A DNA stretch of 32,000 bases from an uncultured Planctomycetia bacterium. Lineage in GTDB: Bacteria; Omnitrophota; Gorgyraeia; Duberdicusellales; 4484-171. The position numbers and the translations under genes were made by a program. A model generated the notes under the pieces. That model made no database searches and was not told the DNA's origin. It saw only the letters and a program-made list of their open reading frames with translations. Below, one piece after another: positions 1 through 13,013 of the stretch; the first letter of the stretch is position 1; every line of letters starts with the position of its first letter. The stretch covers positions 90,001-122,000 of the forward strand of contig CAZHYN010000002.1 in NCBI GenBank assembly GCA_964536865.1, in the 5' to 3' direction.

Positions 1-167
1 CTCAAAAATCTTCCTCCATCTTCATTTATCCACTTCCTTACATCCCCATCCATTATCCTTCTATAGTTTAATCACTTATAAGTAATCCTTCTCATTACCC
101 TATTCTCTCCTTCTAATCATTAAAACAACACTTTCTAAACTAACTCCTAAGAGAAAAACCTTAAATT

Positions 168-680
168 CTAAAATTCAAGAGACTTTAATCTCTCTACATC
201 TTTAAGTATTCTCCTGTGGGAAGAAAAAGGTATGTAAGGAATTTCTTTCTTTCTAAAAAATCTTGCCTCTTTTAATTCATTATTTACGAAAATCCTATCC
301 TTAGAAACCCTTACCAAATAAGCTATTGCCAGAATAGTCCCGTATTTCTTAGTCTTCTGAATATAAACTCCTATTAGATTAGCAATTTCTCCTTCTATCT
401 TAGTTTCTTCTCTTAACTCCCTTAAACAAGCCTCTCGAGGGTCTTCTTCCCACTCAACAAAACCTCCGGGAAGTGCCCATTTATTCTTTCCAGGCTCCAC
501 ATTCCTCTTAGCTAAAAGAATTTTTCCTTCCTTGTCAATCGCTACACCCACTGCTACCGGTAGAGGATTTTTGTAATGTATCCACCCACACCTAAAGCAA
601 ATTTGCCGAAGACAGCCGTCTATCTTTCGCCATCTTAAAGAGTGACTACAAAAAGGACAAAATTTAAAGTTGGTGTTCAT
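168..680 (-). CDS. NUDIX hydrolase with N-terminal zinc ribbon
   Basis: 170-aa ORF. Nudix box GGFVEWEEDPREACLRELREETKIEG fits GX5EX7REUXEEXGU. N-terminal CPFC...CFRC is a zinc-ribbon pattern. ATGA start/stop overlap with the upstream gene at 677-680. Confidence 0.8.
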   Translation of the reverse strand: MNTNFKFCPFCSHSLRWRKIDGCLRQICFRCGWIHYKNPLPVAVGVAIDKEGKILLAKRNVEPGKNKWALPGGFVEWEEDPREACLRELREETKIEGEIANLIGVYIQKTKKYGTILAIAYLVRVSKDRIFVNNELKEARFFRKKEIPYIPFSSHRRILKDVERLKSLEF

Positions 681-943
681 CTCTTACACACTCCATCATC
701 CGAGCAAGGCGGCCTATCGCAACGCTCACTTCTTCCACAACAGGTTCTTCCAGGAGAATTACTATTTTTATAATCAGTAGCGTAGAAGCCTGAGCCTTTA
801 AAAATGAAACCTGCCCCTCCTTCAATAAGACGCCTAACTTTCTGACCACACCGGGGACAAACTTTTACCGGCTCCTCACTCATACTTTGAAATTTCTCAA
901 ACCTATAACCGCACTCTTCACATAAATACTCATAAGTAGGCAT
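677..943 (-). CDS. FmdB-family (CxxC_CxxC_SSSS) zinc-ribbon protein with Cys-rich tail
   Basis: 88-aa ORF. MPTYEYLCEECGYRFE...CPRCG is the typical FmdB-type N-terminus. GSGFYATDY motif is present. The C-terminal tail TCCGRSERCDRPPCSDDGVC is Cys-rich. Confidence 0.75.
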   Translation of the reverse strand: MPTYEYLCEECGYRFEKFQSMSEEPVKVCPRCGQKVRRLIEGGAGFIFKGSGFYATDYKNSNSPGRTCCGRSERCDRPPCSDDGVCKR

Positions 944-953
944 TCTATCCTCC

Positions 954-1775
954 TTATCTTTCTAAGTATGCTATTATCTTCTCTATTATTTCATCTGTAA
1001 CTTTAGAAGCAGCTAAATCTTTATTAAAATATACAAATGGTTTGCCTGAATCAGAAAGCTTAACAATTTCAGGCTCAACCGGTATTCTCCCTAAGAAAGG
1101 AACATTCAACTTTCTCGCTGAAGCTTCTGCCCCTCCCCTACCAAACAAATCTATCTCTTTTCCACAATAAGGACAAATGAAACCACTCATATTCTCTATT
1201 ATCCCAATTACAGGAACGTTTAACTCTTTAGCAAACAATACGCTCTTGCGGGAATCTAAAGTAGCTACATCCTGAGGAGTAGTAACAACTACTGCTCCAT
1301 TCAGGTTTGGTATAAGCTGACACACGCTTAAAGGTTCGTCTCCCGTACCTGGAGGAGAATCTATTACTAAATAATCAAGTCTTCCCCAATTTACATCAGA
1401 TAAGAATTGCTTAATTACGCCCATCTTAAGAGGGCCCCTCCATATAACAGGCTTCTCCTGGTCTTTGCCGACAAAAGCAAGGCTAATTGCCTTAAGATTA
1501 GGAAGCACTTTTATAGGCTCAATACCCTTATCTGAACCTGTAACCCTTGCTCCCTCTACTCCCAGCATTTTAGCAATATTAGGGCCATGAATATCCACAT
1601 CTAATATACCAATTTGCTTACCCCTAAGAGCTAAACTGTAGGCTAAATTTACAGCTATGGTAGTCTTTCCTACTCCACCTTTCCCACTTATAACAATAAT
1701 CTTATAGTTTATGCCGCACATTTTCTCCTTAAGACGTTCGTCTTGGGCTATCTTCTCTTCATTTATATTCTGCAT
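954..1775 (-). CDS. mrp: Mrp/NBP35/ApbC-family Fe-S cluster carrier ATPase
   Basis: 273 aa. Deviant Walker A SGKGGVGKTT. ENMSGFICPYCG carries the CxxC cluster-bridging motif typical of Mrp/NBP35. Confidence 0.85.
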   Translation of the reverse strand: MQNINEEKIAQDERLKEKMCGINYKIIVISGKGGVGKTTIAVNLAYSLALRGKQIGILDVDIHGPNIAKMLGVEGARVTGSDKGIEPIKVLPNLKAISLAFVGKDQEKPVIWRGPLKMGVIKQFLSDVNWGRLDYLVIDSPPGTGDEPLSVCQLIPNLNGAVVVTTPQDVATLDSRKSVLFAKELNVPVIGIIENMSGFICPYCGKEIDLFGRGGAEASARKLNVPFLGRIPVEPEIVKLSDSGKPFVYFNKDLAASKVTDEIIEKIIAYLER

Positions 1776-1799
1776 TACTTCCCTCCTGAAAACAGAAAG

Positions 1800-2660
1800 T
1801 TATGTAATCTCTTCCTCTAATCTATACCAGATTTTAGTAACCTCTCTCTTAGCTTCTGTATCCTGGTATTCTATAATTGTTTTTCCTTCTACCATAGCCT
1901 TTACTACAGACTCGTCAAATTTTATTTTGCCAATTATTGGAATATTATTAATCTGGCAGTAATTTTCTATTCTTTCAGTAACTTCAGTATTTAAATTAAA
2001 TTTATTTATTATCAGTTTAACAGAAACTCCAAAATGCTTAGCTACCTTAATAACTCTATCTGCATCATGCAAGCCTGATAAAGTAGGCTCAACCACCACT
2101 ATTGCATAATCTAAGCCTGATAAAGAAGCAATTACCGGACATCCTATCCCTGGTGAACCATCTATAATTATCAAACTACAATTTTCTTTCTCGGCTATTT
2201 GCTTTGCCTTTTCCCTGACCAAGCTAACGAGTTTGCCTGAGTTTTCTTCAGCTACTCCCAATCTGGCATGGATTAATTTACCAAATCTTGTATTAGATAT
2301 AAACCACTCTCCACAAATCTTTTCCTCCATTCTAATAGCCCCAGCAGGACAAACGTAGCTACAAAAACAGCAACCTTCACAGGAAATAGGGTCAACCACA
2401 AAATCCTCAGTTATAGCAGAAAAACGGCATACAGAGAGGCATTTTCCACAGCGTTGGCAAAACTTCTTATCAATCTCTGCGACTTTACCACTTTTAAACT
2501 TATGTCTTTCTATAATTTCAGGTTTAAGCAAAAGATGTAAATCTGCTGCGTCTACATCACAATCAGCAAAAACAGCATCCTTAGCCAAAGAAGCAAAACC
2601 AGCAGTAATCACAGTCTTACCTGTCCCGCCTTTTCCACTAATAATTCCAATCTGCTTCAT
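1800..2660 (-). CDS. MinD-superfamily P-loop ATPase with inserted 2x[4Fe-4S] ferredoxin domain
   Basis: 286 aa. Walker A SGKGGTGKTV. Two cluster motifs, CQRCGKCLSVC and CEGCCFCSYVCP, sit between the Walker A and the rest of the ATPase fold. 4-nt overlap with the upstream paralog. Confidence 0.85.
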   Translation of the reverse strand: MKQIGIISGKGGTGKTVITAGFASLAKDAVFADCDVDAADLHLLLKPEIIERHKFKSGKVAEIDKKFCQRCGKCLSVCRFSAITEDFVVDPISCEGCCFCSYVCPAGAIRMEEKICGEWFISNTRFGKLIHARLGVAEENSGKLVSLVREKAKQIAEKENCSLIIIDGSPGIGCPVIASLSGLDYAIVVVEPTLSGLHDADRVIKVAKHFGVSVKLIINKFNLNTEVTERIENYCQINNIPIIGKIKFDESVVKAMVEGKTIIEYQDTEAKREVTKIWYRLEEEIT

Positions 2661-3493
2661 TTTACCAATTCTTTAATCTTATAATAGAGAATTTTAAACT
2701 TTTCTCTATATTCAGGAAATCCTTCTATAAGAGGGATGCCTTTTGAATAAGCAACTGCTATTTCTTTTTTAAAAGGAATCTGCATAAGAATAGGGAGCTT
2801 CTTTTGTCTACAAAACTCATCTACTTTGTTATCACCCAATTCAGACCGATTAATAATTACACCAAAAGGAATCTTAAGTTTTCTCAACATCTCCACCGCT
2901 AAAGCCAAATCATTAAGGCCAAAAGGGGTAGGCTCAGTAACTAAGATACAAAAATCACTCCCCTTTACTGCTTCAATAACAGGGCAGGAAGTACCGGGAG
3001 GAACATCAATAATAACATTTTTACCAGAATTTATATGGGCTTTGACCTGGCTAATAAGGGGAGGAGAAATCGCTTCACCAATATTAAGCCTTCCTCCCAC
3101 AAATTCTAAATCGTTTTTTCTACCTATTTCAATAACACCTATTTCCCTCTCAACCTCTTTAATAGCTCCTTGAGGACAAAAGAAGCTGCAAGCTCCACAA
3201 CTATGGCAAAGTTCTTTAAAGACTAAAACATCCTTATTCTTTATTACCGCAATAGCTTTATAAGCACAGACTTCTGCACACTTTCCGCAGAAATTGCACT
3301 TCTCCTTATCTATCTGAGGAACCAGGACAAAAGCTTTTACTTTCTCTGTTATCTGAGGCTTTATAAATATATGAGAGTTAGGCTCCTCTACATCACAATC
3401 TAAAAGCTGGGCAGAAGGTAGAGAAAGAGCTAAATTTACAGCAATAGTAGTCTTTCCTGTTCCACCTTTACCTGAAGCAACTGAAATAACCAT
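2657..3493 (-). CDS. MinD-superfamily P-loop ATPase with inserted 2x[4Fe-4S] ferredoxin domain (paralog)
   Basis: 278 aa. Walker A SGKGGTGKTT. Cluster motifs CNFCGKCAEVC and CHSCGACSFFCP. No obvious Shine-Dalgarno sequence upstream of the ATG at 3493. Confidence 0.85.
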   Translation of the reverse strand: MVISVASGKGGTGKTTIAVNLALSLPSAQLLDCDVEEPNSHIFIKPQITEKVKAFVLVPQIDKEKCNFCGKCAEVCAYKAIAVIKNKDVLVFKELCHSCGACSFFCPQGAIKEVEREIGVIEIGRKNDLEFVGGRLNIGEAISPPLISQVKAHINSGKNVIIDVPPGTSCPVIEAVKGSDFCILVTEPTPFGLNDLALAVEMLRKLKIPFGVIINRSELGDNKVDEFCRQKKLPILMQIPFKKEIAVAYSKGIPLIEGFPEYREKFKILYYKIKELVK

Positions 3494-3592
3494 AGTTTAT
3501 ATAATTTGATGATAAGCCATCATTATCTGCTAAAACTTATAAGATATCCCCAAAGAGGTGGGTCTTCTGGAGGATAAAACCTCTTCTATCTA

Positions 3593-3805
3593 TTACCCAC
3601 GAACCATCCTGGTTCCACACTTAGGACAATTCAAGCTATAACAAGGAACACCTACCTGATGAGGCACTCTCATCCCACAACTAGGACAAACACAATTTCC
3701 TCCTGGACCTGCACCGGGACGATTTCCACCCATTCTACCTCTACCTCTACCACCACCGCTGCCTCTACCTCCTCCAATTGGGCCTCTTCCATCTCCAAAA
3801 GGCAT
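3593..3805 (-). CDS. Small Gly/Arg-rich protein with C-terminal Cys-rich zinc-ribbon
   Basis: 70 aa. N-terminus MPFGDGRGPIGGGRGSGGGRGRGRMGG resembles a DUF5320-type head. C-terminus CVCPSCG...CPKCG. RBS AAAGGAGGTAAAAG lies upstream of the ATG. Confidence 0.6.
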   Translation of the reverse strand: MPFGDGRGPIGGGRGSGGGRGRGRMGGNRPGAGPGGNCVCPSCGMRVPHQVGVPCYSLNCPKCGTRMVRG

Positions 3806-3819
3806 CTTTTACCTCCTTT

Positions 3820-4137
3820 TTAGGCTCTACGAGAATCATTGGAAAGTTTATCTATTCGAGCTAAAACAGAAAAAAGGGTTTCTCTTAACTTCCCAAGTTC
3901 ATCTTTAATTTCTTTTACTTCTCTATCTTTATTTGCTTTTTCAGAAGAAACCATCCTTATTGCCTGAAATGGACAAAATCTTGTGCATACTCCGCAACCT
4001 ACACATTTATCCTCATCAATCCAGGGCCTCCCTCTCACCACTCTTATAGCACCTTGGGGACAACTCGAAATACACTGAAGACAACCCCTGCATATACTTA
4101 AATTAACTACAGCTTTTTTAGATTCTCTAATGCTCAC
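3820..4137 (-). CDS. 2x[4Fe-4S] ferredoxin with C-terminal amphipathic helix
   Basis: 105 aa. Motifs CRGCLQCISSCP and CVGCGVCTRFCP. C-terminal heptad-like segment EVKEIKDELGKLRETLFSVLARIDKL. 11-nt overlap with the upstream gene. Confidence 0.8.
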   Translation of the reverse strand: MSIRESKKAVVNLSICRGCLQCISSCPQGAIRVVRGRPWIDEDKCVGCGVCTRFCPFQAIRMVSSEKANKDREVKEIKDELGKLRETLFSVLARIDKLSNDSRRA

Positions 4138-4453
4138 ACTTATCTGCGCTTTCTTTAAGAACCCCTTTTATAAAATCGTCTATTACCTTATTGATTTCTC
4201 CCTCAGCAAAAATAACCTGGATATTTTTTTCTCTGAATAACTCCTGAGCTCTTGGACCCATACCTCCGCAGATTATCACATTTACCTCCATCTTTGAAAG
4301 ATATTCAGGCAAAAAACCTGGAGTATGACCAGGATTAGAAATAGTCTTTCTTTGCTTTACGCTTTGGCCCTCAGCATCAACAATCTCATACTCAAGACAT
4401 CTTCCAAAATGAGAACTTACTAAATCTCCCTCTTTAGCTATGGCTATCCTCAT
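4127..4453 (-). CDS. NifX/NifB-C-terminal-like (dinitrogenase FeMo-cofactor-binding fold) protein
   Basis: 108 aa. MRIAIAKEGDLVSSHFGRC...VIICGGMGPRAQELF matches the usual pattern of this small-domain family. 4-nt overlap with the upstream gene. Confidence 0.8.
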   Translation of the reverse strand: MRIAIAKEGDLVSSHFGRCLEYEIVDAEGQSVKQRKTISNPGHTPGFLPEYLSKMEVNVIICGGMGPRAQELFREKNIQVIFAEGEINKVIDDFIKGVLKESADKCEH

Positions 4454-5079
4454 TCTTCTGCTCCTTTCTCTAATTCCTGAATTCTTTTGTTTATTAGGCT
4501 CATCTGTTGTTTTAAAAAATCTAACTGCTGTTTTAAAAATTGAAGCTCCTGCTCTTTAGAAACTTGAGGTTGATTAACCTGAGGATAAAATCCTGGTTGA
4601 AAAAACCTTCCTCTTCCCATACCCATACCTCTTCCCATCCCAAAGCCAGGCATAAACCCTGGAGTTGAATAAGGTATATTTTGTTGAGGATTATTAGCTA
4701 ATGCAGAAGGTCCCATCATTCCAAAGTGGCCGAGAACATTAGGGTTAGGAGTGGGGTTGAGCTGGTTTTTTTTAAATTTATCTATGGCCTCTCTTACAGT
4801 TAAACCAGCTAAACCGGTAATAACCTGTATACCTGAAGCCTGAAATACTCCAAAAGAATTAGGTCCCACATTACCAGTCAATACTGCATTTACCCCTTTA
4901 TTGGCTATAAACTGGGCACTGGATATTCCTGCTCCTGAAGGAGAACTAATATTAGGATTAGAGAGACTTTCAAAACTATCCTTTTCTGTATCATAAATTA
5001 TAAAATAAGCACATCTTCCAAAACGAGGATCAACCAGAGAATCTAAATTTCCCCCCTGAGAAGTCACACATATCTTCAT
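4450..5079 (-). CDS. NifX-like domain fused to a low-complexity linker and DUF5320-like coiled-coil tail
   Basis: 209 aa. The N-terminal ~110 aa (MKICVTSQGG...DPRFGRC...GAGISSAQFIANKGVNAVLTGNVGPNSF) are NifX-like. Then comes GFMPGFGMGRGMGMGRGRFFQPGFYP, followed by KEQELQFLKQQLDFLKQQMSLINKRIQELEKG. Confidence 0.75.
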   Translation of the reverse strand: MKICVTSQGGNLDSLVDPRFGRCAYFIIYDTEKDSFESLSNPNISSPSGAGISSAQFIANKGVNAVLTGNVGPNSFGVFQASGIQVITGLAGLTVREAIDKFKKNQLNPTPNPNVLGHFGMMGPSALANNPQQNIPYSTPGFMPGFGMGRGMGMGRGRFFQPGFYPQVNQPQVSKEQELQFLKQQLDFLKQQMSLINKRIQELEKGAEE

Positions 5080-5145
5080 AAAACACCCCTCCTTCTAAAA
5101 ATTGGAAATCCTAAATTCCAATAATTTGGAACAAAGTTATTAAAA

Positions 5146-5466
5146 TTAAGATTCTAACTCCTGGACTCTTTTCTCAATCTGCTCAAGTTGGGCCTTCAAC
5201 GCCTCTGCTTGCTGTTTTAATAGCTGTAACTCCTGTTCTTTAGTAAGTTGAGATACTCCGTAAGGGTCAAAAGGCAAAAATTGGCCTCTTTGAGCCTGGG
5301 GCATATTCTGCCAAGCCCAATTCGCCTGCCAGGTAGGCCAACTCCCGGTCATTAGATACTGAGCCCCTGGAGGCAAAGTCCCCCAACCCGGAGAAAAACC
5401 AAACCTCATCCAGCCAGGTAAACCGGTAAGATAATACATATACCTGTTGCCTCTTCCTCCAACCAT
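5146..5466 (-). CDS. DUF5320-like small protein (W/G/P-rich head plus coiled-coil tail)
   Basis: 106 aa. The head is rich in W, G, P and Q. The tail TKEQELQLLKQQAEALKAQLEQIEKRVQELES is paralogous to the tails at 4450-5079 and 5527-5754. RBS GGGAGGTG lies upstream. Confidence 0.65.
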   Translation of the reverse strand: MVGGRGNRYMYYLTGLPGWMRFGFSPGWGTLPPGAQYLMTGSWPTWQANWAWQNMPQAQRGQFLPFDPYGVSQLTKEQELQLLKQQAEALKAQLEQIEKRVQELES

Positions 5467-5526
5467 ACTAACACCTCCCTCTCTTAGTTTGCAGCTCAGA
5501 ATCAGTAGCCTTGATTTATAAATTAA

Positions 5527-5754
5527 TTATTGGCCTCTCTCTAATTCCTGAATTCGGGCATCTATATCCTTAAGTTGAGCTTCTAAGTTTTGTCTTAATT
5601 GCCTCAAATAACTTAATTCATCCTGCCCAAAAAAGAAAGGAGAAACCCCCCCGAGATAAGGTAATCCATATCCGTAAGAAGCAGGCCAATAAGGATAAAA
5701 ATAAGGCATCATAAACCAACCTGCTGGACCCATCCCAAAAGGCATAACCATCAC
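5527..5754 (-). CDS. DUF5320-like small protein (Met/aromatic/Pro-rich head plus coiled-coil tail)
   Basis: The maximal ORF is 75 aa from a GTG at 5754. The G-rich SD (GGGGGGTG) is best spaced for the ATG at 5745, which gives MPFGMGPAGWFMMPYFYPYW... (72 aa). The tail is ELSYLRQLRQNLEAQLKDIDARIQELERGQ. Confidence 0.65.
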   Translation of the reverse strand: MMVMPFGMGPAGWFMMPYFYPYWPASYGYGLPYLGGVSPFFFGQDELSYLRQLRQNLEAQLKDIDARIQELERGQ

Positions 5755-5783
5755 CCCCCTTTTAAAAATTAAAAGCTGAAAAA

Positions 5784-6017
5784 TTACCTCGTCTGCCCCA
5801 AAGATTGATTACTTCCGTAACCAAAAGGTGTATAACTAAAAGGATTTATTGGCCCATATATACCTGTCCACCACCATCTGGGAAGCCAGGGAAACCACCT
5901 GCAGAAAGGATAAGGATTGCCTCTTCCCCAGCCAAAGTAAGGAAAGTAAGGATAGCCGTAGCCAAAATAACCCCACTTCCAAAAACCAGGACCCCAAAAA
6001 TTTCTTCCTCTAGGCAT
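5784..6017 (-). CDS. Small extremely aromatic/Gly/Pro-rich basic protein (no coiled-coil tail)
   Basis: 77 aa with 9 W, 9 F, 9 Y, 14 G and 11 P, and no Asp or Glu. N-terminus is MPRGRNFWGPGFW. A strong RBS (AGAGGAGGTGA) lies ~8 nt upstream of the ATG. A Fur-type operator lies 35 nt upstream. Confidence 0.55.
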   Translation of the reverse strand: MPRGRNFWGPGFWKWGYFGYGYPYFPYFGWGRGNPYPFCRWFPWLPRWWWTGIYGPINPFSYTPFGYGSNQSLGQTR

Positions 6018-6051
6018 TTTTAATCACCTCCTCTTTTAAATATCATTACCA

Positions 6052-6068
6052 TTGAAAATCATTTTCAA
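6052..6068. promoter_or_regulatory. Fur-family operator (8-1-8 palindrome TTGAAAATcATTTTCAA)
   Basis: Perfect inverted repeat between the fur stop codon (6087) and the start of the 77-aa gene (6017). The inner 7-1-7 TGAAAATnATTTTCA differs by one base per half-site from the Bacillus-type Fur box TGATAATnATTATCA. It may overlap a -35 TTGAAA. Confidence 0.6.
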
Positions 6069-6086
6069 CAATATATTAAAAAAAAA

Positions 6087-6536
6087 TTAGCTACAATTTG
6101 AACATAAACCGTAAAAATGAATTTGATGAGTCTCTATTTTAAAATTATGTTTTTTAGATAATCTTTCTTCTAAACCCTTTATTAATTTTTGTTCATCCTC
6201 TACAAAATCTTTATAATCAATTATCTTCCCACACTTTCTGCAAATTAAATGGTGATGATGTTCTATACCTGGTCCCTGGCTTAATTCAAATCTGGCCCTT
6301 CCGTCTCCAAACTCATATTTCCTTACCAGGCCCATATTAAAAAGAAGTTCTAAAGTTCTGTAAACTGTAGTAAGCCCTATCCCCGGATACCGCTTATGAA
6401 CTTTCAGGAAAATATCCTCAGCACTAAGGTGCTTTTTTTCTTTAGTCAAAACATCCAAGATAACCTGCCTGGGAAAAGTCCACCTAAAACCACAACCTCT
6501 AAATCTTGCTTCTAACCATCTCGGGCCAAAAGGCAT
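6087..6536 (-). CDS. fur: Fur-family metalloregulator (Fur/PerR/Zur subtype not resolved)
   Basis: 149 aa. Winged-helix N-domain (TFPRQVILDVL...HLSAEDI...TVYRTLELL). His cluster HHHHLICRKCGK. Two CxxC pairs (CRKC, CSNC) form a structural Zn site. RBS AAGGAAGGAG lies upstream. Confidence 0.9.
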   Translation of the reverse strand: MPFGPRWLEARFRGCGFRWTFPRQVILDVLTKEKKHLSAEDIFLKVHKRYPGIGLTTVYRTLELLFNMGLVRKYEFGDGRARFELSQGPGIEHHHHLICRKCGKIIDYKDFVEDEQKLIKGLEERLSKKHNFKIETHQIHFYGLCSNCS

Positions 6537-6551
6537 AAAACTCCTTCCTTA

Positions 6552-6568
6552 TTGAAAATGATTTTCAA
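6552..6568. promoter_or_regulatory. Fur-family operator (second copy, TTGAAAATgATTTTCAA)
   Basis: Same 8-1-8 palindrome as 6052-6068, read from the opposite strand. It lies between the predicted -10 and the RBS of fur, a position that suggests autoregulation. An extra half-site-like ATTGAAA sits immediately upstream on the coding strand. Confidence 0.6.
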
Positions 6569-6578
6569 TTTCAATAAA

Positions 6579-6607
6579 ATAATACCATAATAAGCTTCTC
6601 CTGTCAA
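6579..6607 (-). promoter_or_regulatory. Sigma70-type promoter of the fur-led operon
   Basis: The minus strand reads TTGACA (6607-6602), a 17-nt spacer ending in TGg (extended -10), then TATTAT (6584-6579). The operator starts 10 nt downstream of the -10. Confidence 0.55.
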
Positions 6608-6873
6608 GAGTAAAAGACCTGGAGTTTCCCCAAAATTTTTAAGCCAGTAAAGAGAAGAGGAAGAGCTGTTTTTCGGTACTTTGCAATTTTCTTTCCTTCC
6701 ACGGCCACTCCATCTTATATTAAATAGAATTCTAAATATCCCCAAGGCTAAGCAATAGTGTTTGAAGGGTGATATCTGAAAGAATCTTTTTGCCTTTTCA
6801 TAAATCTTCTTAAGAAGAATATTTAATCCCAAATTTTTCATTACCTGCCTGACGGCAGGCCTGCCCGCTGATG

Positions 6874-6910
6874 TTTACCCCGCCCTTTCCTTGAAAGGGC
6901 GGGGTTCGGG
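6874..6910 (-). terminator. GC-rich hairpin 3 nt after the operon stop codon; short copy of a repeated palindromic element
   Basis: The minus strand reads CCCGAACC-CCGCCCTTT-caagg-AAAGGGCGG-GGTAAA, an 11-bp G/C-rich stem with a 5-nt loop. There is no U-tract. A second hairpin (CCTGCC tgac GGCAGG) lies at 6845-6860. It is homologous to the element at 21559-21627. Confidence 0.4.
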
Positions 6911-6912
6911 GG

Positions 6913-7956
6913 TTACTCTAAGTGATCCCCCTTTAGAATCTTTCTAACTAAGTCAAAAACCTCCTCAGGTTTTATTTCTCTAAGACATAAAAATCCCTTA
7001 TTACAGTTATGAGCTAAGCACTTTTTGCACCCTACATCTTTATGTAAGTAGAAAGACTTCTCTCCTAACGGCCTCCATCTTTGAGGAGAAAGACCTTGGT
7101 TGTTTCTTCCAAATATGGAGATAACAGGAGTATTTAAGCTAGCGGCAATGTGCACAGGACCACTATCATTGGAAATAAAAATATTGGCTCGCTTCAAAAG
7201 AGAAGCTAAAGAAGAAATATCTAATCTTCCTCTTAAGTCGATTAAATCAGGATGTTCCTCGATAAGAAGCTGGCCATAAACTATCTCTGATTTAGAAGTA
7301 ATTACTGCAATTTTAGGATAAAATTCTTCTTTTAGTAATCTTATCAAAGATGAAAAGTGTCTTTGAGGCCATCTCTTGGATGGGCAAGAAGCAGAAGGAT
7401 GAATTACAAAGAGTAAATCATCTTCTTCTACTCCTCTACTTTTAAGTAACTGCTCTATATAGCGTTCCTTTTCTTCTTTTATGGGAAAATATAGAGACTT
7501 ATCAATTATCTTAATATCTATCTCTCTGAGAATATCTAAAGTATACTCCAACTCATGCTTCTGGCCTTTATCTTTAGTATGGGGAATTCTTTTAGTAAGA
7601 AGAAAACCACATTTTTTATCCCAGCCAACTCTAAAGGGAATTCCTGCAAAGTAGGTAATTAGGTGTACTCTATTTGTAGGATGCAAAATTATTGCCCAAT
7701 CAAATTTTTTTCTTCTCAACCATAAAGAAAATTTTGCAGAAGAAAACCAGCCTTTATGTCTTCCGTATTTATCATAAATGATTACCTCATCAAGATAAGG
7801 ATTTCCCTCTAATATATCCTTAGTGTAAGGCCGGCACATAAAAGCAATCCAACTATTAGGAAAGGCTATTCTTAAGTTCTTAATCACTGGCGTAGAAAGG
7901 ACTACATCTCCAATTCTGTCTGTACGAACAATCAATATTTTTTTAACTCCTCTCAT
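6913..7956 (-). CDS. Glycosyltransferase family 9 (LPS heptosyltransferase-like)
   Basis: 347 aa. N-terminus ILIVRTDRIGDVVLSTPVIKNL and the C-terminal block FISNDSGPVHIAASLNTPVISIFG are typical GT9 motifs. Confidence 0.8.
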   Translation of the reverse strand: MRGVKKILIVRTDRIGDVVLSTPVIKNLRIAFPNSWIAFMCRPYTKDILEGNPYLDEVIIYDKYGRHKGWFSSAKFSLWLRRKKFDWAIILHPTNRVHLITYFAGIPFRVGWDKKCGFLLTKRIPHTKDKGQKHELEYTLDILREIDIKIIDKSLYFPIKEEKERYIEQLLKSRGVEEDDLLFVIHPSASCPSKRWPQRHFSSLIRLLKEEFYPKIAVITSKSEIVYGQLLIEEHPDLIDLRGRLDISSLASLLKRANIFISNDSGPVHIAASLNTPVISIFGRNNQGLSPQRWRPLGEKSFYLHKDVGCKKCLAHNCNKGFLCLREIKPEEVFDLVRKILKGDHLE

Positions 7957-8872
7957 AGGATAATAACTTTCTTACTGCCTCTATTACTCTATGAGGGGAA
8001 ATCTTCATGCAATCGGAATTATAGGGACAAATTGATCTTCCACAGGGAGAACACAATAGATTTTCATTACGTAGAACTATAGATTTAGTAGACCAAGGAC
8101 CGTAACGAAGAGAAGATGTGGGGCCAAAGATAGCAACGATAGGTAGATCAATATAACTGGCTAAATGAAGAAGAGCGGAATCCACTCCTAAAAAAAGTAT
8201 AGCATAGTTTTCTAAAAGAAAGAATACTTCACTCATTGTAGTTTTACCTACCAAATCTATAACTCCTCTTATTTTAAGAATGTCTTTATAAAACTCTCTA
8301 TCTTCATTTCTCCCTACTATCACTGAAGGATAATCTTTAACTAAATCCATAATTACTTCCTTAAGGTATGGGTAACGTTTAACAGCAGAGCGAGAGGAAC
8401 AGCCCACGAATATCGAAGGAGGTATATTTTCTCGATGCCATTTTTCCTCCTCTTGGGGGGTTAATAAGAAACTACTCTTTTTAATAACTGTATTTTGGGA
8501 GGTAATTTTTCTCACTAAACTGAGATACTCATCTTTCATATGCATATCTTTGCAGGACTTCCTCCAAAACGGTGTTCTCCTCCTAATCCCCAAAAGAAAA
8601 GGCAGGAGAGAGTTTTTAAAATCAATTATTAAATCATACTTGCCCTTTAGATCATAACAGAATCTCATCTTCTCTCTTATTCTCCACCTTTTATCAAACA
8701 CAGCAACATCATCGATAAAATTATTTCTCAGTAGAAACTCCTTAGTCTTAGGAGAAACTATGGCAGTAATCTTAGCTTGAGGATAGGAGGATTTAACTTT
8801 ATCTAACACAGGGAGAGCTAAGATTGTATCTCCTAAATTAGTAGGAAAATTGAAAATTATTCTTTCAGGCAT
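7943..8872 (-). CDS. Glycosyltransferase family 9 (heptosyltransferase-like), divergent
   Basis: 309 aa. NLGDTILALPVLDKV and GVDSALLHLASYIDLPIVAIFGPT are GT9-type motifs. 14-nt overlap with the downstream gene. Confidence 0.7.
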   Translation of the reverse strand: MPERIIFNFPTNLGDTILALPVLDKVKSSYPQAKITAIVSPKTKEFLLRNNFIDDVAVFDKRWRIREKMRFCYDLKGKYDLIIDFKNSLLPFLLGIRRRTPFWRKSCKDMHMKDEYLSLVRKITSQNTVIKKSSFLLTPQEEEKWHRENIPPSIFVGCSSRSAVKRYPYLKEVIMDLVKDYPSVIVGRNEDREFYKDILKIRGVIDLVGKTTMSEVFFLLENYAILFLGVDSALLHLASYIDLPIVAIFGPTSSLRYGPWSTKSIVLRNENLLCSPCGRSICPYNSDCMKISPHRVIEAVRKLLSYERS

Positions 8873-9864
8873 TGGAGAATCTCTTTTGCCTCTCGGAAAA
8901 CCTCCTCAGCAGATACATTCTTCATGCAAATATTATTCCTACAATTCAATTTAAAACAGGGGACTTTGCATTCCTTATTCTTATAAATTAATCTAATCAA
9001 TCCTTTACCTCGTGGTCCACTGATAGAAGGATGAGTAGGACCGAATATAGCTATGAGAGGAGTCCCCACACTTGCAGCTAAGTGCATTATTCCAGTATCT
9101 GCAGAAATAAACAAATTAACTCTCTTTAAAACTGCTCCTAACTCTCTTAAGCTTGTTCTACCTACCAAAAGATAAGGCTTGTTCTTCATTAGCTTCTTTA
9201 TCTGGAAAGCTAAATCTAAATCATCTCTTGTGCCAGTAATTATAACCGAAGCATCTAACTCCTCTATTAACTTATCCCCTAACTGAGCGAAATACTCTTT
9301 TGGCCACATCTTAAGGGCCCAGTTAGCCTTAGGATGGAGAACTACTTTTAATCTACTATTTAAAATAGACGAAGGAAGAATTGAACCTACTTGTTCGATT
9401 TCTTGAGGCAAGAGAAAAAATTCTGGTTCTTTCTTACTTACTTTGAGACCTATACTCTCTATCAAATTTAAATAGTAATCCATCTTATGAGTACCTTTGG
9501 GGGGAAGGGAAATCTTCCTATTTATAAAAGTAATTTTTTTTGATTCGTATCCGTAAATATCTTTGATGTGTGCTAACTTACACATCAACGATTTAGTAAA
9601 GGAAGGTTTAAGTAGAAAGGCAGTATCAAACTCTTTCTTTGATATCCTCTTGGTAATTTTTAAATTAGAGAGCAAATCTCGGTGAGAAGAAAAAGTTATA
9701 ATCTCGTCCACAAAAGGACTGTGGATAAAAATCTGCTCCACTCTTTTATGAATTAAAATACCTATCCAACAATGAGGTTTATTTTCTTTTAAACTACGTA
9801 AGAGAGGGGTAGCCATAAGAGAATCTCCTATCCAGTTAGGTAGAAATACCAAAATCTTTTTCAT
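8857..9864 (-). CDS. Glycosyltransferase family 9 (heptosyltransferase II/WaaF-like)
   Basis: 335 aa. ILVFLPNWIGDSLMATPLLRSL and FISADTGIMHLAASVGTPLIAIFGPT. The specific acceptor cannot be assigned from sequence alone. Confidence 0.75.
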   Translation of the reverse strand: MKKILVFLPNWIGDSLMATPLLRSLKENKPHCWIGILIHKRVEQIFIHSPFVDEIITFSSHRDLLSNLKITKRISKKEFDTAFLLKPSFTKSLMCKLAHIKDIYGYESKKITFINRKISLPPKGTHKMDYYLNLIESIGLKVSKKEPEFFLLPQEIEQVGSILPSSILNSRLKVVLHPKANWALKMWPKEYFAQLGDKLIEELDASVIITGTRDDLDLAFQIKKLMKNKPYLLVGRTSLRELGAVLKRVNLFISADTGIMHLAASVGTPLIAIFGPTHPSISGPRGKGLIRLIYKNKECKVPCFKLNCRNNICMKNVSAEEVFREAKEILQCLKE

Positions 9865-9866
9865 AC

Positions 9867-10964
9867 TTAATTACTGTGGATTAAAACCTCCTCATATACC
9901 TGATAAGTAGACTCCCCCATCCTCTCTAAACTAAATCTCTCCTCCACCCTCTTTTTAGCGTTAGCTACCATCCGCCTCCTTAAATCGTTATCCTCTAAAA
10001 GAAGTTCGATAGCCTCTAAGATTTCTTTAGAATCACTCCTCTTTAAAACGACACCTGTTACTCTATTTTCTACTATCTCCTTTAAAGCGCCAGAATTTGT
10101 TACTATTACAGGGATACCCACATACTGAGCTTCAACAACTGAAAATCCAAAAGGCTCTCCCTCACTTAAGGAGAGGAAAATATCTAAATTTCTCAATACT
10201 ACTAAAGACGACAGTTTCTTTAAAAAGACAACTCTATTATCTACACCTAAATTCTTACTCATTTCCTTTAATTTTGCCTCTTCTTTCCCCTCTCCTAAAA
10301 TTAAAGTAACTGCCTTAGGATACTTCTTCAGAATAAGAGGCATAGTTTGGATAAGCAAAGAAATATTCTTTTCTGGAGCCAAGCGAGATATCATCCCTAT
10401 AACAGGATAACCATTAAAGCCTACAGGTAAGACCTCTTCCTTAATAGAATTATCTATTTGAGAAAAAGAATTGATATCAATACCGTTATAAATTACTCGT
10501 ACTTTCTTAGGATCAATCTTAAGATTTCTGATTAAGTGGTCTTTTACATAATTACTCACTGCTATGGTTCTTAACCCTGCGAAGGGAAATAGTCTTCTAA
10601 ATAGATGGGGTCGATAACATCCATGGAAAGTGGATACATAAGGAATTTTTCTAGTTGCCCATAAACGATGAGCTAAAGATTGAGTTACTCTAGTGTTAGC
10701 ATGAATAATGTCTACTTTCCTCTTTTTAAGAAATCTACTTAATATGTGAAACGATTTAGCTATCTTAGGAGAAAGAATAGACTTTGTAGCTATAGGAAGG
10801 TTTAAGACTACCGTATTACTTACTCCTACCAACTTTTTCTCCCATTCTCCTCCACTGGTTGCTACAATAACAAAATTCTTCCTTGCTAAAAATTTCGCTA
10901 AATTTATTACATAGCGGGGGATACCTCCCACATTAAGATGAGTAGTAAGAAGGAGAATCCTCAT
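9867..10964 (-). CDS. Glycosyltransferase family 4 (GT-B, retaining)
   Basis: 365 aa. N-terminus MRILLLTTHLNVGGIPRY. EX7E-type motif EGEPFGFSVVEAQYVGIPVIVT. Confidence 0.8.
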   Translation of the reverse strand: MRILLLTTHLNVGGIPRYVINLAKFLARKNFVIVATSGGEWEKKLVGVSNTVVLNLPIATKSILSPKIAKSFHILSRFLKKRKVDIIHANTRVTQSLAHRLWATRKIPYVSTFHGCYRPHLFRRLFPFAGLRTIAVSNYVKDHLIRNLKIDPKKVRVIYNGIDINSFSQIDNSIKEEVLPVGFNGYPVIGMISRLAPEKNISLLIQTMPLILKKYPKAVTLILGEGKEEAKLKEMSKNLGVDNRVVFLKKLSSLVVLRNLDIFLSLSEGEPFGFSVVEAQYVGIPVIVTNSGALKEIVENRVTGVVLKRSDSKEILEAIELLLEDNDLRRRMVANAKKRVEERFSLERMGESTYQVYEEVLIHSN

Positions 10965-13012
10965 CTTTCTATAATCTCTTTGATCTTCCTAAAAACTTCT
11001 TGGGGGCTAATACTTTTCATACAAGTATTTAACCGGCACCTTGGCTTATAACAGAAGGAGCAAGGAAGTTGTTTATATAATACATAAAGATTTCTGCTCT
11101 CTACTATATGACGTTTAGGATCGGTAGGACCAAATAGAGCGACAGTCTCTACTCCTAATGCTGCAGAAATATGCAGAGTAGCAGTATCTTGACATACAAA
11201 CACTTTAAGGATACTTAAGAGTACTATTAGTTCTTTTAGATTGGTCTTGCCACAGAGATTGATAACTCCATCTTTAAAGTTTTTTCTTATATGATTTGCT
11301 GCTTCCCTGCTATGAGAATCTCCTACTAAAACTATCTTATAAGAAGGGAATTCTTTCCTTATAAATTCTATAAGTTTAATAATATTCACTATAGGCCAGT
11401 TCTTTGTCTTCCATCTCACCGAAGCAGAAACACTTATCCCAATCAAATTTTTCTCTCCGGATAACCCTAACTTCTCTATAGAGGTAAGGGATGGCTTCTT
11501 CATAATCAATTTTCTTTCCTTTATCTCGATCCCCAATAACCGTAAGATTCTATTTTGTGACTGAAGAGGGTTGATTCTTTCTTTGGGAAACTTTACCGAG
11601 GATGTAAGAAGAAAACCAAGCTTACGGGAGAAACCGAAAGACTTCTGAGGAAAACTTAAAAAAGCAATAAGATGTGTAGCTAGATTATTCTGCAAATCTA
11701 TTATATAATCAAAACTCTCTCTCCGTAAACTATTAGAAATTTTAATAATCCTCTTCATCTTCTTATAATCTCTATCTATCCCTATTACCTTATCCACAAA
11801 GGGAAACTCATAAAACAGAGAAGCATATTTTTTTAAAGTCAAAACTACCAGTTTACTTTTAGGAAAACTCTCCTTTATCGCCTTAAGTGAAGGAATAGCT
11901 AACACTACATCACCCAAGGAAGAAACTTTTATAACTAAAATTCTTTTAAACTCTATAGCTTCTCGGTAAGTCTGAAGAATTTTACTATAACAGTTTTGGA
12001 GGGTATAAAGCGTTTCTACTTTCTTGCGCCCATTATAAGCCAGCTTCCTTGCTAAAGATGGATTATCTATCAGAGTTAAAATAGCTTCCTTTATCTGGTT
12101 GGAATCACCAGGTAAAACTAAAATGCCGTTTTTTTTATCTTCTACAATTTCCTCCAGAGCACCTACCTTGGTAGCAATTACTGGAACTCCACTAGCAAAT
12201 GCTTCTACCACCACCCTCCCAAAAGACTCCTTAGCAACGGAAGGAACTACCATAAGAGAGGCTTTTTCTAATATTCTCTCTACGTTAGACTGATACCCCA
12301 AAAATTCCACATGATAATCTAAAGATAAGCGTCTCACTAAATTCTTTAAATACTCAAAGTAATTCCATTTAGACTTCTCCGCCTCTCCTACGATAAGAAG
12401 ATTCAGATAAGGTTTCACTCTTATAACCTTATGAAATGCCTGAATAAGATACTCAAAGCCCTTAGAGGGAGATATTCTTCCTATACTTACTATTATATTG
12501 GAAGCTAACCTCTGAGAAGGATCTTTAAAAGTAAATCGAGATAGATCTACCCAACGACTGATTATTCTAATTTTTTCTTCACTGACACCGAAATTTTTCA
12601 TCATATGACGAGCAATCACCTTGGAAGGACATATAACAAATTTACCCCACCCCATTACCTTACTAAATGTATGTTTAGAATAGGCTCCATGAGCAGTAGT
12701 GATAAAGGGAATATCTCTCCCTCGAGTAGCAAAAAAAGTAACCCATGCAGGAACACGAGAGCGAGCATGAACTATCTCTGCCTTCTCTTGCTGAATAATT
12801 TTTCTCACTTTTCTTATCAGCCGAAGAGTAAGAGGGGATTTTTTATGTATGGGAAGATTATAGCAAGTTACTCCTTCTTCTTTTAATTTTGCGATTAGCC
12901 TTCCTCCCCCAGAAATAACTACCATCTCCTCCTTAAAATACTTAGCTAAATCTAAAACTCCTCGTTCCACTCCTCCTAAATCCATTTTGGGAAGAACTTG
13001 AATAACCTTCAT
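10961..13012 (-). CDS. Bifunctional GT4-GT9 fusion glycosyltransferase
   Basis: 683 aa. Residues 1 to ~350 are GT4 (GGVERGVLDL..., ESFGRVVVEAFASGVPVIAT). Residues ~357 to 683 are GT9 (ILVIKVSSLGDVVLAIPSLKAI..., VCQDTATLHISAALGVETVALFGPT). Confidence 0.8.
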   Translation of the reverse strand: MKVIQVLPKMDLGGVERGVLDLAKYFKEEMVVISGGGRLIAKLKEEGVTCYNLPIHKKSPLTLRLIRKVRKIIQQEKAEIVHARSRVPAWVTFFATRGRDIPFITTAHGAYSKHTFSKVMGWGKFVICPSKVIARHMMKNFGVSEEKIRIISRWVDLSRFTFKDPSQRLASNIIVSIGRISPSKGFEYLIQAFHKVIRVKPYLNLLIVGEAEKSKWNYFEYLKNLVRRLSLDYHVEFLGYQSNVERILEKASLMVVPSVAKESFGRVVVEAFASGVPVIATKVGALEEIVEDKKNGILVLPGDSNQIKEAILTLIDNPSLARKLAYNGRKKVETLYTLQNCYSKILQTYREAIEFKRILVIKVSSLGDVVLAIPSLKAIKESFPKSKLVVLTLKKYASLFYEFPFVDKVIGIDRDYKKMKRIIKISNSLRRESFDYIIDLQNNLATHLIAFLSFPQKSFGFSRKLGFLLTSSVKFPKERINPLQSQNRILRLLGIEIKERKLIMKKPSLTSIEKLGLSGEKNLIGISVSASVRWKTKNWPIVNIIKLIEFIRKEFPSYKIVLVGDSHSREAANHIRKNFKDGVINLCGKTNLKELIVLLSILKVFVCQDTATLHISAALGVETVALFGPTDPKRHIVESRNLYVLYKQLPCSFCYKPRCRLNTCMKSISPQEVFRKIKEIIER

Positions 13013-13013
13013 C

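Follow-up and report, generated by a model that had tools for sequence, protein, structure and literature searches.

A version of the ORP (orange protein) gene cluster headed by a Fur-family regulator in an Omnitrophota genome, with a possible role in handling iron-sulfur material

The window analysed here is a stretch of 32,000 nucleotides (nt) of contig CAZHYN010000002.1 (positions 90,001 to 122,000) from an uncultured Omnitrophota bacterium; positions below count from its first letter. Thirteen open reading frames (ORFs) run along its minus strand from 6536 down to 168, according to the ORF list and our own junction table. They encode a Fur-family regulator, small low-complexity proteins, two NifX-like proteins, a ferredoxin, a pair of MinD-type ATPases with inserted ferredoxin domains, an Mrp-type carrier ATPase and zinc-ribbon proteins. 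A first-pass annotation of this DNA, made without database searches, took the run for an uncharacterised system with no assigned function. This is wrong: judged by its sequences and gene order, the run is one form of the ORP (orange protein) cluster described for Desulfovibrio vulgaris (DVU2103-2109) and therefore a named, partly characterised system (PMC6345978, PMC8359166, PMC3897727). The features of the run, in the direction of transcription, are:

6579..6607, minus strand: promoter P1, sigma-70 type, with TTGACA, a 17-nt spacer and TATTAT, TG-extended -10, 11/12 consensus matches
6552..6568, no strand assigned: candidate operator O1, the 17-bp palindrome TTGAAAATGATTTTCAA, exact match
6087..6536, minus strand: Fur-family repressor, the predicted regulator, 149 amino acids (aa) (PF01475, E 2e-35)
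6052..6068, no strand assigned: candidate operator O2, TTGAAAATCATTTTCAA, exact match
5784..6017, minus strand: W77, 77 aa, starting MPRGRNFWGP, core motif GNPYPFCRWFPWLPRWWW; no Pfam or NCBIfam match
5527..5754, minus strand: S75, N-terminal half rich in aromatics, Gly, Pro and Met; coiled-coil helix at the C-terminus
5146..5466, minus strand: S106, DUF5320-like, 106 aa, core YYLTGLPGWMRFGFSPGW, C-terminal coiled coil QELQLLKQQAEALKAQLEQIEKRVQELE
4450..5079, minus strand: ORP-tail protein, 209 aa (Nitro_FeMo-Co and DUF5320)
4127..4453, minus strand: second NifX-like protein, 108 aa (Nitro_FeMo-Co, 5e-19; NCBIfam MrpORP)
3820..4137, minus strand: 2x[4Fe-4S] ferredoxin (Fer4), eight Cys in two CxxCxxCxxxCP motifs
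3593..3805, minus strand: Orp5-like Cys-rich protein, 70 aa; weak, below-cut-off Zn_ribbon_3 match
2657..3493, minus strand: MinD-type ATPase A with inserted 2x[4Fe-4S] ferredoxin domain, Orp3/Orp4 type (ParA/CbiA and Fer4)
1800..2660, minus strand: MinD-type ATPase B with inserted ferredoxin domain, paralogue of A (ParA/CbiA and Fer4)
954..1775, minus strand: Mrp/NBP35/ApbC-type Fe-S carrier ATPase, 273 aa, with CPYC (ICPYCG) (PF10609, E 7e-96)
677..943, minus strand: FmdB-type zinc-ribbon protein with a Cys-rich C-terminal tail (PF09723, Zn_ribbon_8, E 1e-17)
168..680, minus strand: Nudix hydrolase with N-terminal zinc ribbon (Pfam NUDIX 8e-20, Zn_ribbon_Nudix)
6494-6536, 5988-6017, 5716-5745 and 3779-3805, minus strand: tag N-termini of Fur, W77, S75 and the Orp5-like protein, respectively

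Junctions within the run are gaps of 69, 29, 60, 66, 14, 99, 24 and 10 nt or, in four cases, overlaps of 4, 11, 4 and 4 nt, as had been read earlier (gaps of at most 99 nt, overlaps of 4-11 nt), and a Shine-Dalgarno sequence is visible ahead of most starts. P1, the near-consensus promoter that the first-pass annotation had seen ahead of fur, is the best promoter match within positions 1-7000. Since nearly all genes of the 32-kb window lie on the minus strand, the common orientation is weak evidence for an operon; the support for one rests on gene content and order that are kept in other genomes, as far as sequence comparison can tell.

In D. vulgaris, the ORP complex contains Orp3 and Orp4, which are MinD-like with two [4Fe-4S] motifs each, and Orp5, a small protein homologous to a [2Fe-2S] binder (PMC6345978, PMC3897727, PMC8359166). 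Orp8 is the orange protein itself, with a non-covalent Mo/Cu sulfide cluster, and Orp9/MrpORP is an Mrp/NBP35 domain fused to a NifX-like 'Di-Nase' domain (PMC6345978). Transcription of the orp genes depends on sigma-54, IHF and the activator OrpR (PMC6345978, PMC3897727, PMC8359166). The subunits of the complex, Fe-S transfer from Mrp to Orp3/4 and redox regulation have already been studied (PMC6345978, PMC8359166, PMC3897727), including in vitro transfer from MrpORP to Orp3, Orp4 and Orp8 (PMC6345978). The role of ORP is described as 'unclear' in this literature, where the proposals are that it is connected with cell division or that it matures the Fe-S subunits of the complex itself (PMC6345978, PMC8359166).

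Profile searches with Pfam and NCBIfam reproduced all domain calls of the first-pass annotation. The Nitro_FeMo-Co domain is matched by two proteins (1e-25 and 5e-19), in the 209-aa protein at residues 13-104, and in NCBIfam both match the C-terminal domain of MrpORP. Residues 2-114 of the 209-aa protein align with full-length D. gigas ORP (PDB 2WFB, E 1.7e-23), its best solved match. The protein consists of an ORP-fold domain (1-115), a Pro-rich and then GMGRG-type cationic tail (119-171) and a DUF5320 helix (175-208). The AlphaFold2 model follows this layout, with a predicted local distance difference test score (pLDDT) above 93 in the ORP domain, below 50 at residues 119-171 and around 90 in helix 175-208. 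DUF5320 (PF17253, cut-off 27 bits) is scored at 42.7 bits in the 209-aa protein, above the cut-off, and at 23.7 bits in the 106-aa protein, below it; Pfam finds no match to it in the 77-, 75- and 70-aa proteins of the window. More than 3500 homologues of the ORP-tail protein exist, and their architecture of ORP domain, Pro-rich linker, GMGRG-type low-complexity stretch and 35-residue coiled coil is constant.

The 108-aa protein corresponds to positions 265-364 of the NCBIfam MrpORP model (E 6e-27), at a score far under the 450-bit cut-off set for the whole protein. SHFGRC near its N-terminus and CEH near its C-terminus resemble the CxHFGHCE and CDH motifs described for the D. vulgaris protein (PMC6345978). 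The window Mrp has no fused NifX domain; its best solved relatives are the Fe-S carriers 3KB1/6OBY (7e-67) and Cfd1. A charged helix ends the ferredoxin and resembles, if loosely, the coiled-coil pattern seen in the small proteins. Two proteins from elsewhere (P0115 and P0116) are triple fusions of NifX, Fer4 and DUF5320. In the window, the ORP-tail protein and the ferredoxin have a gene each, and the fusions support the view that the two are linked in function.

ATPase genes A and B overlap by 4 nt, from the start of B to the stop of A, and their family returns more than 8000 matches at E<=1e-20. In ATPase A, the Walker A motif SGKGGTGKT, Cys33 of a DCDV motif and PPGTSC170PV reach at least 95% conservation among 58 homologues. 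The same holds for both proteins (51-58 homologues) with respect to the deviant Walker A, the DCDV Cys, the PPG(T/I)xCPV Cys and both ferredoxin motifs. Cys33 and Cys170, with their equivalents in B, lie outside the ferredoxin insert and could provide a further site for a metal or cluster where the dimer halves meet. We also considered Cys170 (D163+7, PPGTSCPV) as an equivalent of the NifH ligand Cys132. This is unsupported: hhalign covered the N-terminus only (DCDV with GCDPKAD), and BLASTP of the C-terminal half against NifH gave no match. The AlphaFold2 model of ATPase A (pLDDT 91) has a predicted C-terminal helix at 261-277. In a Foldseek search of the PDB, its nearest folds are archaeal MinD, FleN/FlhG, HypB, ApbC, McdA, BchL and NifH, all of which lack the ferredoxin insert, and the search does not separate positioning, metal-delivery and electron-transfer ATPases.

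The 70-aa Cys-rich protein combines an MPFGDGRGP start, a Gly/Arg-rich segment (50% Gly, isoelectric point (pI) 12) and a CxCPxCG...CPxCG knuckle. Its gene is found in 52/80 loci, obtained by scanning one genome per species and including Desulfobacterota-type loci, mostly directly before the ATPase pair or one methyltransferase gene away from it. The family comprises 1485 representative clusters at E<=1e-3. It may be the counterpart of Orp5, beside which we set it by gene position and not by sequence, and its place in the Orp5 slot suggests that it may bind [2Fe-2S] rather than Zn. Thus the first-pass count of three zinc-ribbon proteins stands for the FmdB and Nudix ribbons, and the third, with its weak Zn_ribbon_3 match, is perhaps a [2Fe-2S] protein. 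The same Cys knuckle also occurs as 3-10 repeats in proteins of about 1000-1500 aa (P0311-P0313, P0318, P0327).

The remaining small proteins are dominated by few residue types. W77 consists of 35% Trp/Tyr/Phe, 18% Gly and 14% Pro, with no acidic residue. It belongs to a family of about 70 homologous clusters in bacteria and archaea with the invariant motif C39/R40/F42/P43/L45/P46/R47/W49/W50. Some members keep the DUF5320 coiled coil, and W77 homologues, like many unassigned genes inside the clusters, reach the DUF5320 threshold. For S75, the true start is most likely the ATG at 5745 (MPFGMGPAGWF, 72 aa), as judged by alignment: homologues in loci L001, L023 and L067 begin MPFGMGP, MPFGMGR or MPYGMGR once an upstream alternative start is trimmed, and the same-species contig L082 has the protein called at 72 aa. 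S106 has homologues in 29/80 loci. Across the 80 loci, the low-complexity segments of 148 homologues are rich in Gly, Pro, Met and aromatics, contain 0-3% acidic residues and carry net positive charge in 141/148 cases. By this comparison, the low-complexity proteins are real, conserved families and not noise. Acid-poor, cationic segments kept across phyla would also fit the scaffold or matrix role that the first-pass annotation had suggested for them.

Two further elements tie the proteins together. The helix pattern (E/Q)EL..LK.Q...L..QL..I..RI.ELE ends S75, S106 and the ORP-tail protein, and more loosely the ferredoxin, so that these four may co-assemble. At the other terminus, four window genes start with MP[FR]G: Fur (MPFGPRW), W77 (MPRGRNFWGP), S75 (MPFGMGP) and the Orp5-like protein (MPFGDGRGP). 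The tag, MP[RGF]G[DN]G[T]GP, occurs in 89 of the 8136 ORFs of the 80 loci, and 85/89 occurrences are inside clusters and on the cluster strand. It heads Orp5-like proteins, canonical DUF5320 proteins and, in degenerate form, the dedicated Fur, where it replaces the usual first helix. Partners of ParA/MinD ATPases typically use N-terminal peptides. Because of this habit, and because Orp5 co-purifies with Orp3/4 in Desulfovibrio, it is attractive to view the tag as a docking peptide for the MinD-type ATPases.

Such a tag would also suit a system for spatial organisation or cell division. Here, the two MinD-type ATPases would be a positioning pair of the ParA/MinD kind, the disordered coiled-coil small proteins would be McdB- or MinE-like adaptors that dock by the tag, and the Fe-S clusters would be no more than redox or iron sensors. 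The nearest solved folds (MinD, FleN/FlhG, ParA/Soj, McdA), the deviant Walker A of both ATPases and the restriction of the tag to clusters (85/89) are consistent with this. In D. vulgaris, loss of OrpR leads to morphological defects, MrpORP is polar, and Orp3/4 possess a MinD-like C-terminal amphipathic helix (PMC6345978, PMC8359166), to which helix 261-277 of the window model may correspond. However, the same fold class also contains the delivery ATPases HypB, ApbC and NifH, and the division phenotype is indirect. In addition, minC/E, ftsZ and parB are absent from the 25 commonest Pfam families in each of three neighbour censuses, and Fur-type control together with the recurrent partners NifU_N, Mrp and NifX points to metal-cluster chemistry. 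We therefore consider a positioning system improbable.

The predicted regulator carries an HHHH motif, two CxxC pairs and a degenerate N-terminal extension (MPFGP...RFRGCGFR); H93-H96, C99, C102, C145 and C148 are invariant in the alignment of its subclade. In NCBIfam it scores 131 bits with Bacillus-type Fur (cut-off 220), 89.7 with PerR and 37 with Zur, and against solved structures 104 bits with Fur proper and 72.5 with PerR. In a metagenome scan from the Fur side, limited to relatives with at least 1 kb of downstream sequence, ORP genes lie downstream of 21/26 relatives of at least 46% identity and of 0/33 more distant Furs. The regulator therefore belongs to a dedicated subclade. A fur gene is part of the cluster in 28/80 loci, as the first gene in 27 of them, and these 28 loci span at least eight named phylum-level labels and several metagenome-assembled genomes without a phylum label. 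The comparison of gene neighbourhoods that the first-pass annotation called for thus finds Fur recurrently at the head of the cluster, with a conserved operator.

The second rank of PerR, in NCBIfam as among solved structures, raises the question whether the cluster instead repairs or protects Fe-S proteins under oxidative or redox stress, with a PerR-like peroxide or redox sensor as its regulator. OrpR of Desulfovibrio is a redox sensor too (PMC8359166). Genes of damage-control type are at hand, with Nudix in the operon and DJ-1/PfpI downstream in the same genome, and ARMT1-like damage-control phosphatases recur in related clusters. Nevertheless, Fur proper clearly outscores PerR in both comparisons, the operator is nearer to the Fur box than to the PerR box, and the Desulfovibrio orp genes switch off, not on, as the redox potential rises. 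A repair system thus appears unlikely.

O1 is separated by 10 nt from the -10 hexamer on its upstream side and by 15 nt from the fur ATG on its downstream side. O2 lies 18 nt past the fur stop and 34 nt ahead of the next ATG, and overlaps a weak promoter-like site, TTGAAA-18-GATATT. Both were located by pattern search and our own scan, as their 8-nt arms are shorter than the 9-nt inverted-repeat seed. The two exact sites agree with the two identical palindromic operators reported before; O1 and O2 are reverse complements of each other and therefore have identical arms. The palindrome TTGAAAAT(C/G)ATTTTCAA occurs exactly twice in the 32 kb, with no third match at up to three mismatches. We then counted its core, TGAAAATNATTTTCA, with at most two mismatches in the 150 nt upstream of fur and from -15 to +80 nt around the fur stop. 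It is present upstream in 30/47 Fur-headed loci (4.1 sites/kb) and just after the stop in 21/51 (4.3 sites/kb), against a background of 0.046/kb elsewhere in Fur loci and 0.024/kb in non-Fur ORP loci. Over 51 Fur-headed loci, the operator is hence enriched about 90-fold at the two fixed positions.

Classical 7-1-7 boxes read TGATAATNATTATCA for Fur, TTATAATNATTATAA for PerR and TCGTAATNATTACGA for Zur. Compared with the Fur box, the operator of this cluster has one deviating position in each half-site, and the Fur form is itself present in some loci. A further element, GATAATGATGGCTTATCATC (3508-3527, minus strand), sits ahead of the first ATPase gene, within the gap of 99 nt. The classical 19-bp Fur box opens with the same nine bases as this element, which may act as a weaker, third control site or belong to an internal promoter.

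Other ORP loci are controlled differently. Among 38 non-Fur loci with upstream sequence, an OrpR-like PAS/sigma-54 activator lies directly upstream in nine and a DUF134 protein in four. Locus L001, which is of the sigma-54 type, carries homologues of W77, S75 and S106, and the small proteins therefore belong to ORP systems under either regulator. The window itself has no gene for a sigma-54 enhancer-binding protein, and its sigma-54 promoter-like matches are at chance level, none of them in promoter position.

The 80 loci come from Omnitrophota, Planctomycetota, Dehalococcoidia, Clostridia, WOR-3, TA06, KSB1, Aminicenantes, Atribacterota, Thermodesulfobacteriota, Nitrospirota-type Thermodesulfovibrionales, Bathyarchaeia, Thermoplasmatales and others. 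Their recurrent order is small low-complexity genes, NifX, ORP-tail, (ferredoxin), Orp5-like, ATPase A, ATPase B, (Mrp) and (FmdB ribbon). In the 50 loci with enough sequence, the ATPase pair is found in 39, the Orp5-like gene in 39 and Mrp in 22, which upholds the gene set as a conserved unit; the FmdB ribbon is found in 27/80. The first-pass view of the run as one set is supported by this recurrence except at its end: Nudix is found in 0/80 related clusters and, on this comparison, is not a conserved member of the system. It is probably still co-transcribed, since its start overlaps the preceding stop by 4 nt.

That the run is a chance succession of same-strand genes, with a Fur that regulates itself alone, seems highly improbable in this light. 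The strand bias of the window would allow it, and more than one transcript may be made, as the first ATPase gene follows a gap of 99 nt with a Fur-box-like sequence in it and O2 overlaps a weak promoter-like site. Yet the same genes recur in the same order across phyla, there are overlaps of 4-11 nt at four junctions, the operator past the fur stop is conserved in 21/51 loci, and the junctions hold no convincing intrinsic terminator.

The unassigned genes inside the clusters (n=68) comprise DUF5320 proteins (14), S-adenosylmethionine (SAM) methyltransferases (10), NifU_N/IscU scaffolds (6), radical SAM proteins (5), ARMT1-like proteins (4) and metallo-beta-lactamases (4). Downstream neighbours in the first 39 loci (n=82) include metallo-beta-lactamases (7), radical SAM proteins (7) and NifU_N (5). 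Genes for NifU_N, radical-SAM, metallo-beta-lactamase-fold and ARMT1-like proteins thus recur at ORP clusters elsewhere; none is present in the window. No genes for Mo, W, Cu or division appear among the 25 most frequent families of each census. Taken together, the censuses favour Fe-S chemistry over thiometallate and division readings, in line with the Fe-S direction of the first-pass annotation.

A thiometallate role would mean that, in sulfidic habitats, the cluster handles Mo or W together with Cu or serves as a Mo/W store. It draws on D. gigas ORP as the closest solved relative, since purified ORP holds [S2MoS2CuS2MoS2] non-covalently (PMC6345978), and the cationic tails would suit any anionic metal sulfide. 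In contrast, the 25 commonest families among 188 genes inside or next to clusters include IscU-type scaffolds and no genes for molybdate/tungstate transport, molybdopterin or copper, and the regulator is Fur-like and not ModE- or CsoR-like. We hold this role to be distinctly unlikely.

The combination of a NifX fold and a cationic tail has a characterised precedent in IssA of Pyrococcus furiosus. This iron-sulfur storage protein has a NifX-fold domain and a cationic tail and stores thioferrate, in the form of nanoparticles (PMC5524996). The tail is Pro-rich, then cationic, aromatic and glycine-rich, unstructured, and has been proposed to wrap around anionic thioferrate (PMC5524996). The published filter for IssA proteins asks for pI >=9, <5 Cys and >=20% Gly in the last 40 residues (supplement of PMC5524996). 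The 209-aa protein has 2 Cys, and its last 37 residues are a coiled coil with 3% Gly. It thus misses the Gly value because its C-terminus is taken up by the coiled coil; considered by itself, tail segment 109-172 reaches pI 10.9 and 19% Gly. In Methanococcus voltae grown on FeS2, an Fe(II)-limitation response coincides with a rise of two IssA homologues and accumulation of an Fe-S phase (PMC8516115). A Fur-headed, IssA-tailed ORP cluster appears to be new: we found no description of a Fur-regulated ORP cluster in the searchable literature, where absence is not proof.

We propose, with moderate confidence, that the region is a Fur-controlled ORP cluster that encodes an iron-responsive machine for binding, buffering and passing on iron-sulfur (metal-sulfide) material; the iron signal, its sign and the chemistry are what we infer. 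In this model, a Fur-type dimer would bind the two 7-1-7 palindromes, one over the P1 start region and one between fur and the structural genes. Occupancy of O1 and O2, whose sites and conservation are described above, would shut off fur and the downstream genes. The co-repressor would most likely be Fe(II), so that the operon would be on at low free Fe(II), with the sign uncertain. Once the proteins are made, an Mrp dimer may carry a bridging [4Fe-4S] cluster on CPYC and load both MinD-ferredoxin ATPases, as its Desulfovibrio homologues do in vitro. The ATPase pair, with four [4Fe-4S] clusters, would couple ATP to electron delivery or to partner gating. The ORP-fold protein, two of the small proteins and the ferredoxin may co-assemble through their common C-terminal coiled coil. 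The acid-free cationic Gly/Arg/Met/aromatic tails would form a multivalent matrix together with W77 and the Orp5-like protein, as their composition suggests. Finally, this matrix may hold anionic metal sulfide non-covalently, in the manner of thioferrate on IssA or thiometallate on ORP.

Several points weigh against this model. The [4Fe-4S]-dependent OrpR turns orp on at low redox potential in Desulfovibrio (PMC8359166), a logic that is not obviously equal to derepression at low iron. The Desulfovibrio literature proposes a role in cell division (PMC6345978, PMC8359166), and purified ORP carries a Mo/Cu cluster, not Fe-S (PMC6345978). With pI 8.9 and little Gly in its last 40 residues, the 209-aa protein falls short of two of the three IssA filter values, and its RG-rich cationic tail, like those of its partners, could equally bind nucleic acid or drive self-association. 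The window Fur reaches no curated NCBIfam equivalog cut-off; the ranking favours Fur as a tentative subtype. Lastly, IssA is made when iron and sulfide are plentiful (PMC5524996), a pattern opposite to that expected of a classical holo-Fur repressor. Sulfidic conditions could reconcile these patterns: with iron taken in as FeS(aq), little free Fe(II) would be present. The M. voltae response on FeS2 fits this picture. Alternatively, Fur may repress as apo-protein or sense something else.

A bolder form of the proposed iron-sulfur machine, which we regard as rather unlikely, is an ATP-serviced, protein-scaffolded iron-sulfide store, perhaps a condensate or nanoparticle, which many anaerobic bacteria and archaea would build as their counterpart of ferritin. 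The ORP complex would be the core of this store and not a division factor. Its parts would be the MPRGDGTGP docking tag, the acid-free cationic/aromatic segment and the common coiled coil, joined to ORP/NifX and ferredoxin domains. As Fur bears the same tag, the store machine could titrate its own regulator.

The ORP cluster is among the most widespread anaerobe-specific gene sets, and the question of its role dates from 2011. The dedicated Fur with its conserved operator, the recruitment of IscU-type scaffolds and the fusion of ORP to an IssA-like tail now provide handles on this role, and they tie the ORP and the IssA/thioferrate literatures into one hypothesis on the buffering of iron and sulfide by anaerobes. 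Several large families of small proteins for which Pfam has no model (Orp5-like, W77 and S75 type) are defined as well, together with a cluster-specific N-terminal tag. As for the first-pass annotation, its observations are confirmed and its interpretation is partly supported.

The borders of the run involve three further features:

6838..6915, minus strand: double GC-rich hairpin between the heptosyltransferase gene of the lipopolysaccharide (LPS) block and the Fur promoter
6512..6841, minus strand: 109-aa ORF that overlaps the promoter and the fur start, listed as a gene in a public assembly
1..53, minus strand: class-I SAM methyltransferase, first 17 codons, cut by the window edge; equals the start of L081:5753-6316

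The hairpins fold at -43.7 kcal/mol (z = -4.6; 0/200 shuffles as stable) and went unlisted in the terminator scan because they have no T-run. They are likely a terminator or boundary element that probably ends the upstream LPS operon, and would therefore mark the upstream boundary of the ORP unit. Terminator-like matches placed elsewhere in the run fall inside coding sequence, and an Rfam scan of 1-7200 at E<=0.1 returned no RNA family. We reject the ORF at 6512-6841 as a gene, as it has no Pfam match and no homologue in 160 related loci.

At the other end, the same-species contigs L081 and L082 carry an identical operon and have the methyltransferase start 114 nt past Nudix. It is possible that this methyltransferase is the 14th gene of the unit; its homologues lie inside or beside ORP clusters in loci L017, L087, L040 and L058. 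A methyltransferase of 203 aa lies between the Orp5-like and ATPase genes in eight loci; in three others, such a gene is found no more than about 30 nt from where ATPase B ends. Orthology of the two was considered and rejected: they share generic class-I similarity only (22% identity), and hence represent two distinct types. The presence of RG-rich proteins beside methyltransferases inside the clusters makes methylation of the former by the latter a tempting idea.

The closest named homologues, at about 70% identity, are from Candidatus Omnitrophota. By Pfam, the flanks are of housekeeping type and encode LPS-core/lipid A functions, XerC/D, topoisomerase I, DprA, shikimate kinase, a GGDEF response regulator and a chemotaxis operon. 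The LPS block (6913-17102) includes three heptosyltransferases, GT4 enzymes, a lipid A acyltransferase-ELM1 fusion, LpxK and KdtA; the fusion (13014-14822) joins an acyltransferase to a 'mitochondrial fission ELM1' domain, which is an unusual architecture. The chemotaxis operon (23235-31979) encodes MCP, PilZ, CheC, CheB, CheD, CheR and CheA. Pfam searches of 22/23 other window ORFs of at least 90 aa, with 27463-27837 and 31590-31979 left out of the scan of the flanks, found no nif genes (nifHDK, nifEN, radical-SAM nifB). This agrees with the first-pass statement that the cluster does not serve nitrogen fixation.

Among known systems, McdA-McdB and MinD-MinE resemble the cluster in their deviant-Walker-A ATPases and in small partners with a charged, disordered N-terminus and a coiled coil. 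The window ATPases differ in that they carry Fe-S domains and have no known cargo organelle, and the comparison concerns only how such systems work. Nitrogenase cofactor trafficking (NifX, NafY, the NifB C-terminal domain and NifH) shares the NifX fold and the pairing of a SIMIBI-class, Fe-S-bearing ATPase with cluster carriers. Here, the ATPases are MinD-like with a ferredoxin insert, and not NifH, and no nif genes accompany them.

Classical Fur regulons share the Fur-family repressor with HHHH and two CxxC pairs, a 7-1-7 AT-rich palindrome that overlaps the promoter, predicted autoregulation and Fe-S machinery as a target. The suf Fe-S assembly operon of E. coli, for instance, is Fur-repressed. 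In the window subclade, by contrast, a Pro/Gly/Trp-rich extension (MPRGDGTGP-PWWHGRFRGCGYR) stands in place of the N-terminal helix, the box reads TGAAAATNATTTTCA instead of TGATAATNATTATCA, and a second operator follows the fur stop.

With IssA and the 'IssX' clade, the ORP-tail protein shares an N-terminal IPR003731/NifX domain followed by a Pro-rich, then cationic Gly/aromatic disordered tail. Both kinds of protein have few Cys and almost no acidic tail residues, and both are anaerobe proteins tied to Fe/S supply. Here, however, the tail ends in a conserved coiled coil, and much of the aromatic and cationic material is on separate small proteins. The domain is closer to ORP than to other solved proteins, the gene sits in an ATPase/Mrp operon, and thioferrate binding is putative only.

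The closest likeness is to the D. vulgaris ORP cluster. Both have two paralogous MinD-type ATPases with an inserted 2x[4Fe-4S] domain, preceded by a small Cys-rich protein in an order that mirrors orp5-orp4-orp3, as well as an ORP-fold NifX-like protein, an Mrp/NBP35 protein with CxxC and a 'Di-Nase' NifX domain. Both are restricted to anaerobes, and related loci elsewhere have an OrpR-like PAS/sigma-54 activator. The window genes form one co-directional operon, whereas D. vulgaris has two divergent ones, and a Fur repressor, sigma-70 and palindromic operators take the place of sigma-54, IHF and OrpR. MrpORP, which is fused there, is split here into Mrp and the 108-aa gene, and the ORP domain continues into a disordered cationic tail and a coiled coil. 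To this common core, the window cluster adds three low-complexity proteins, a helix-tailed ferredoxin, an FmdB zinc ribbon and Nudix.

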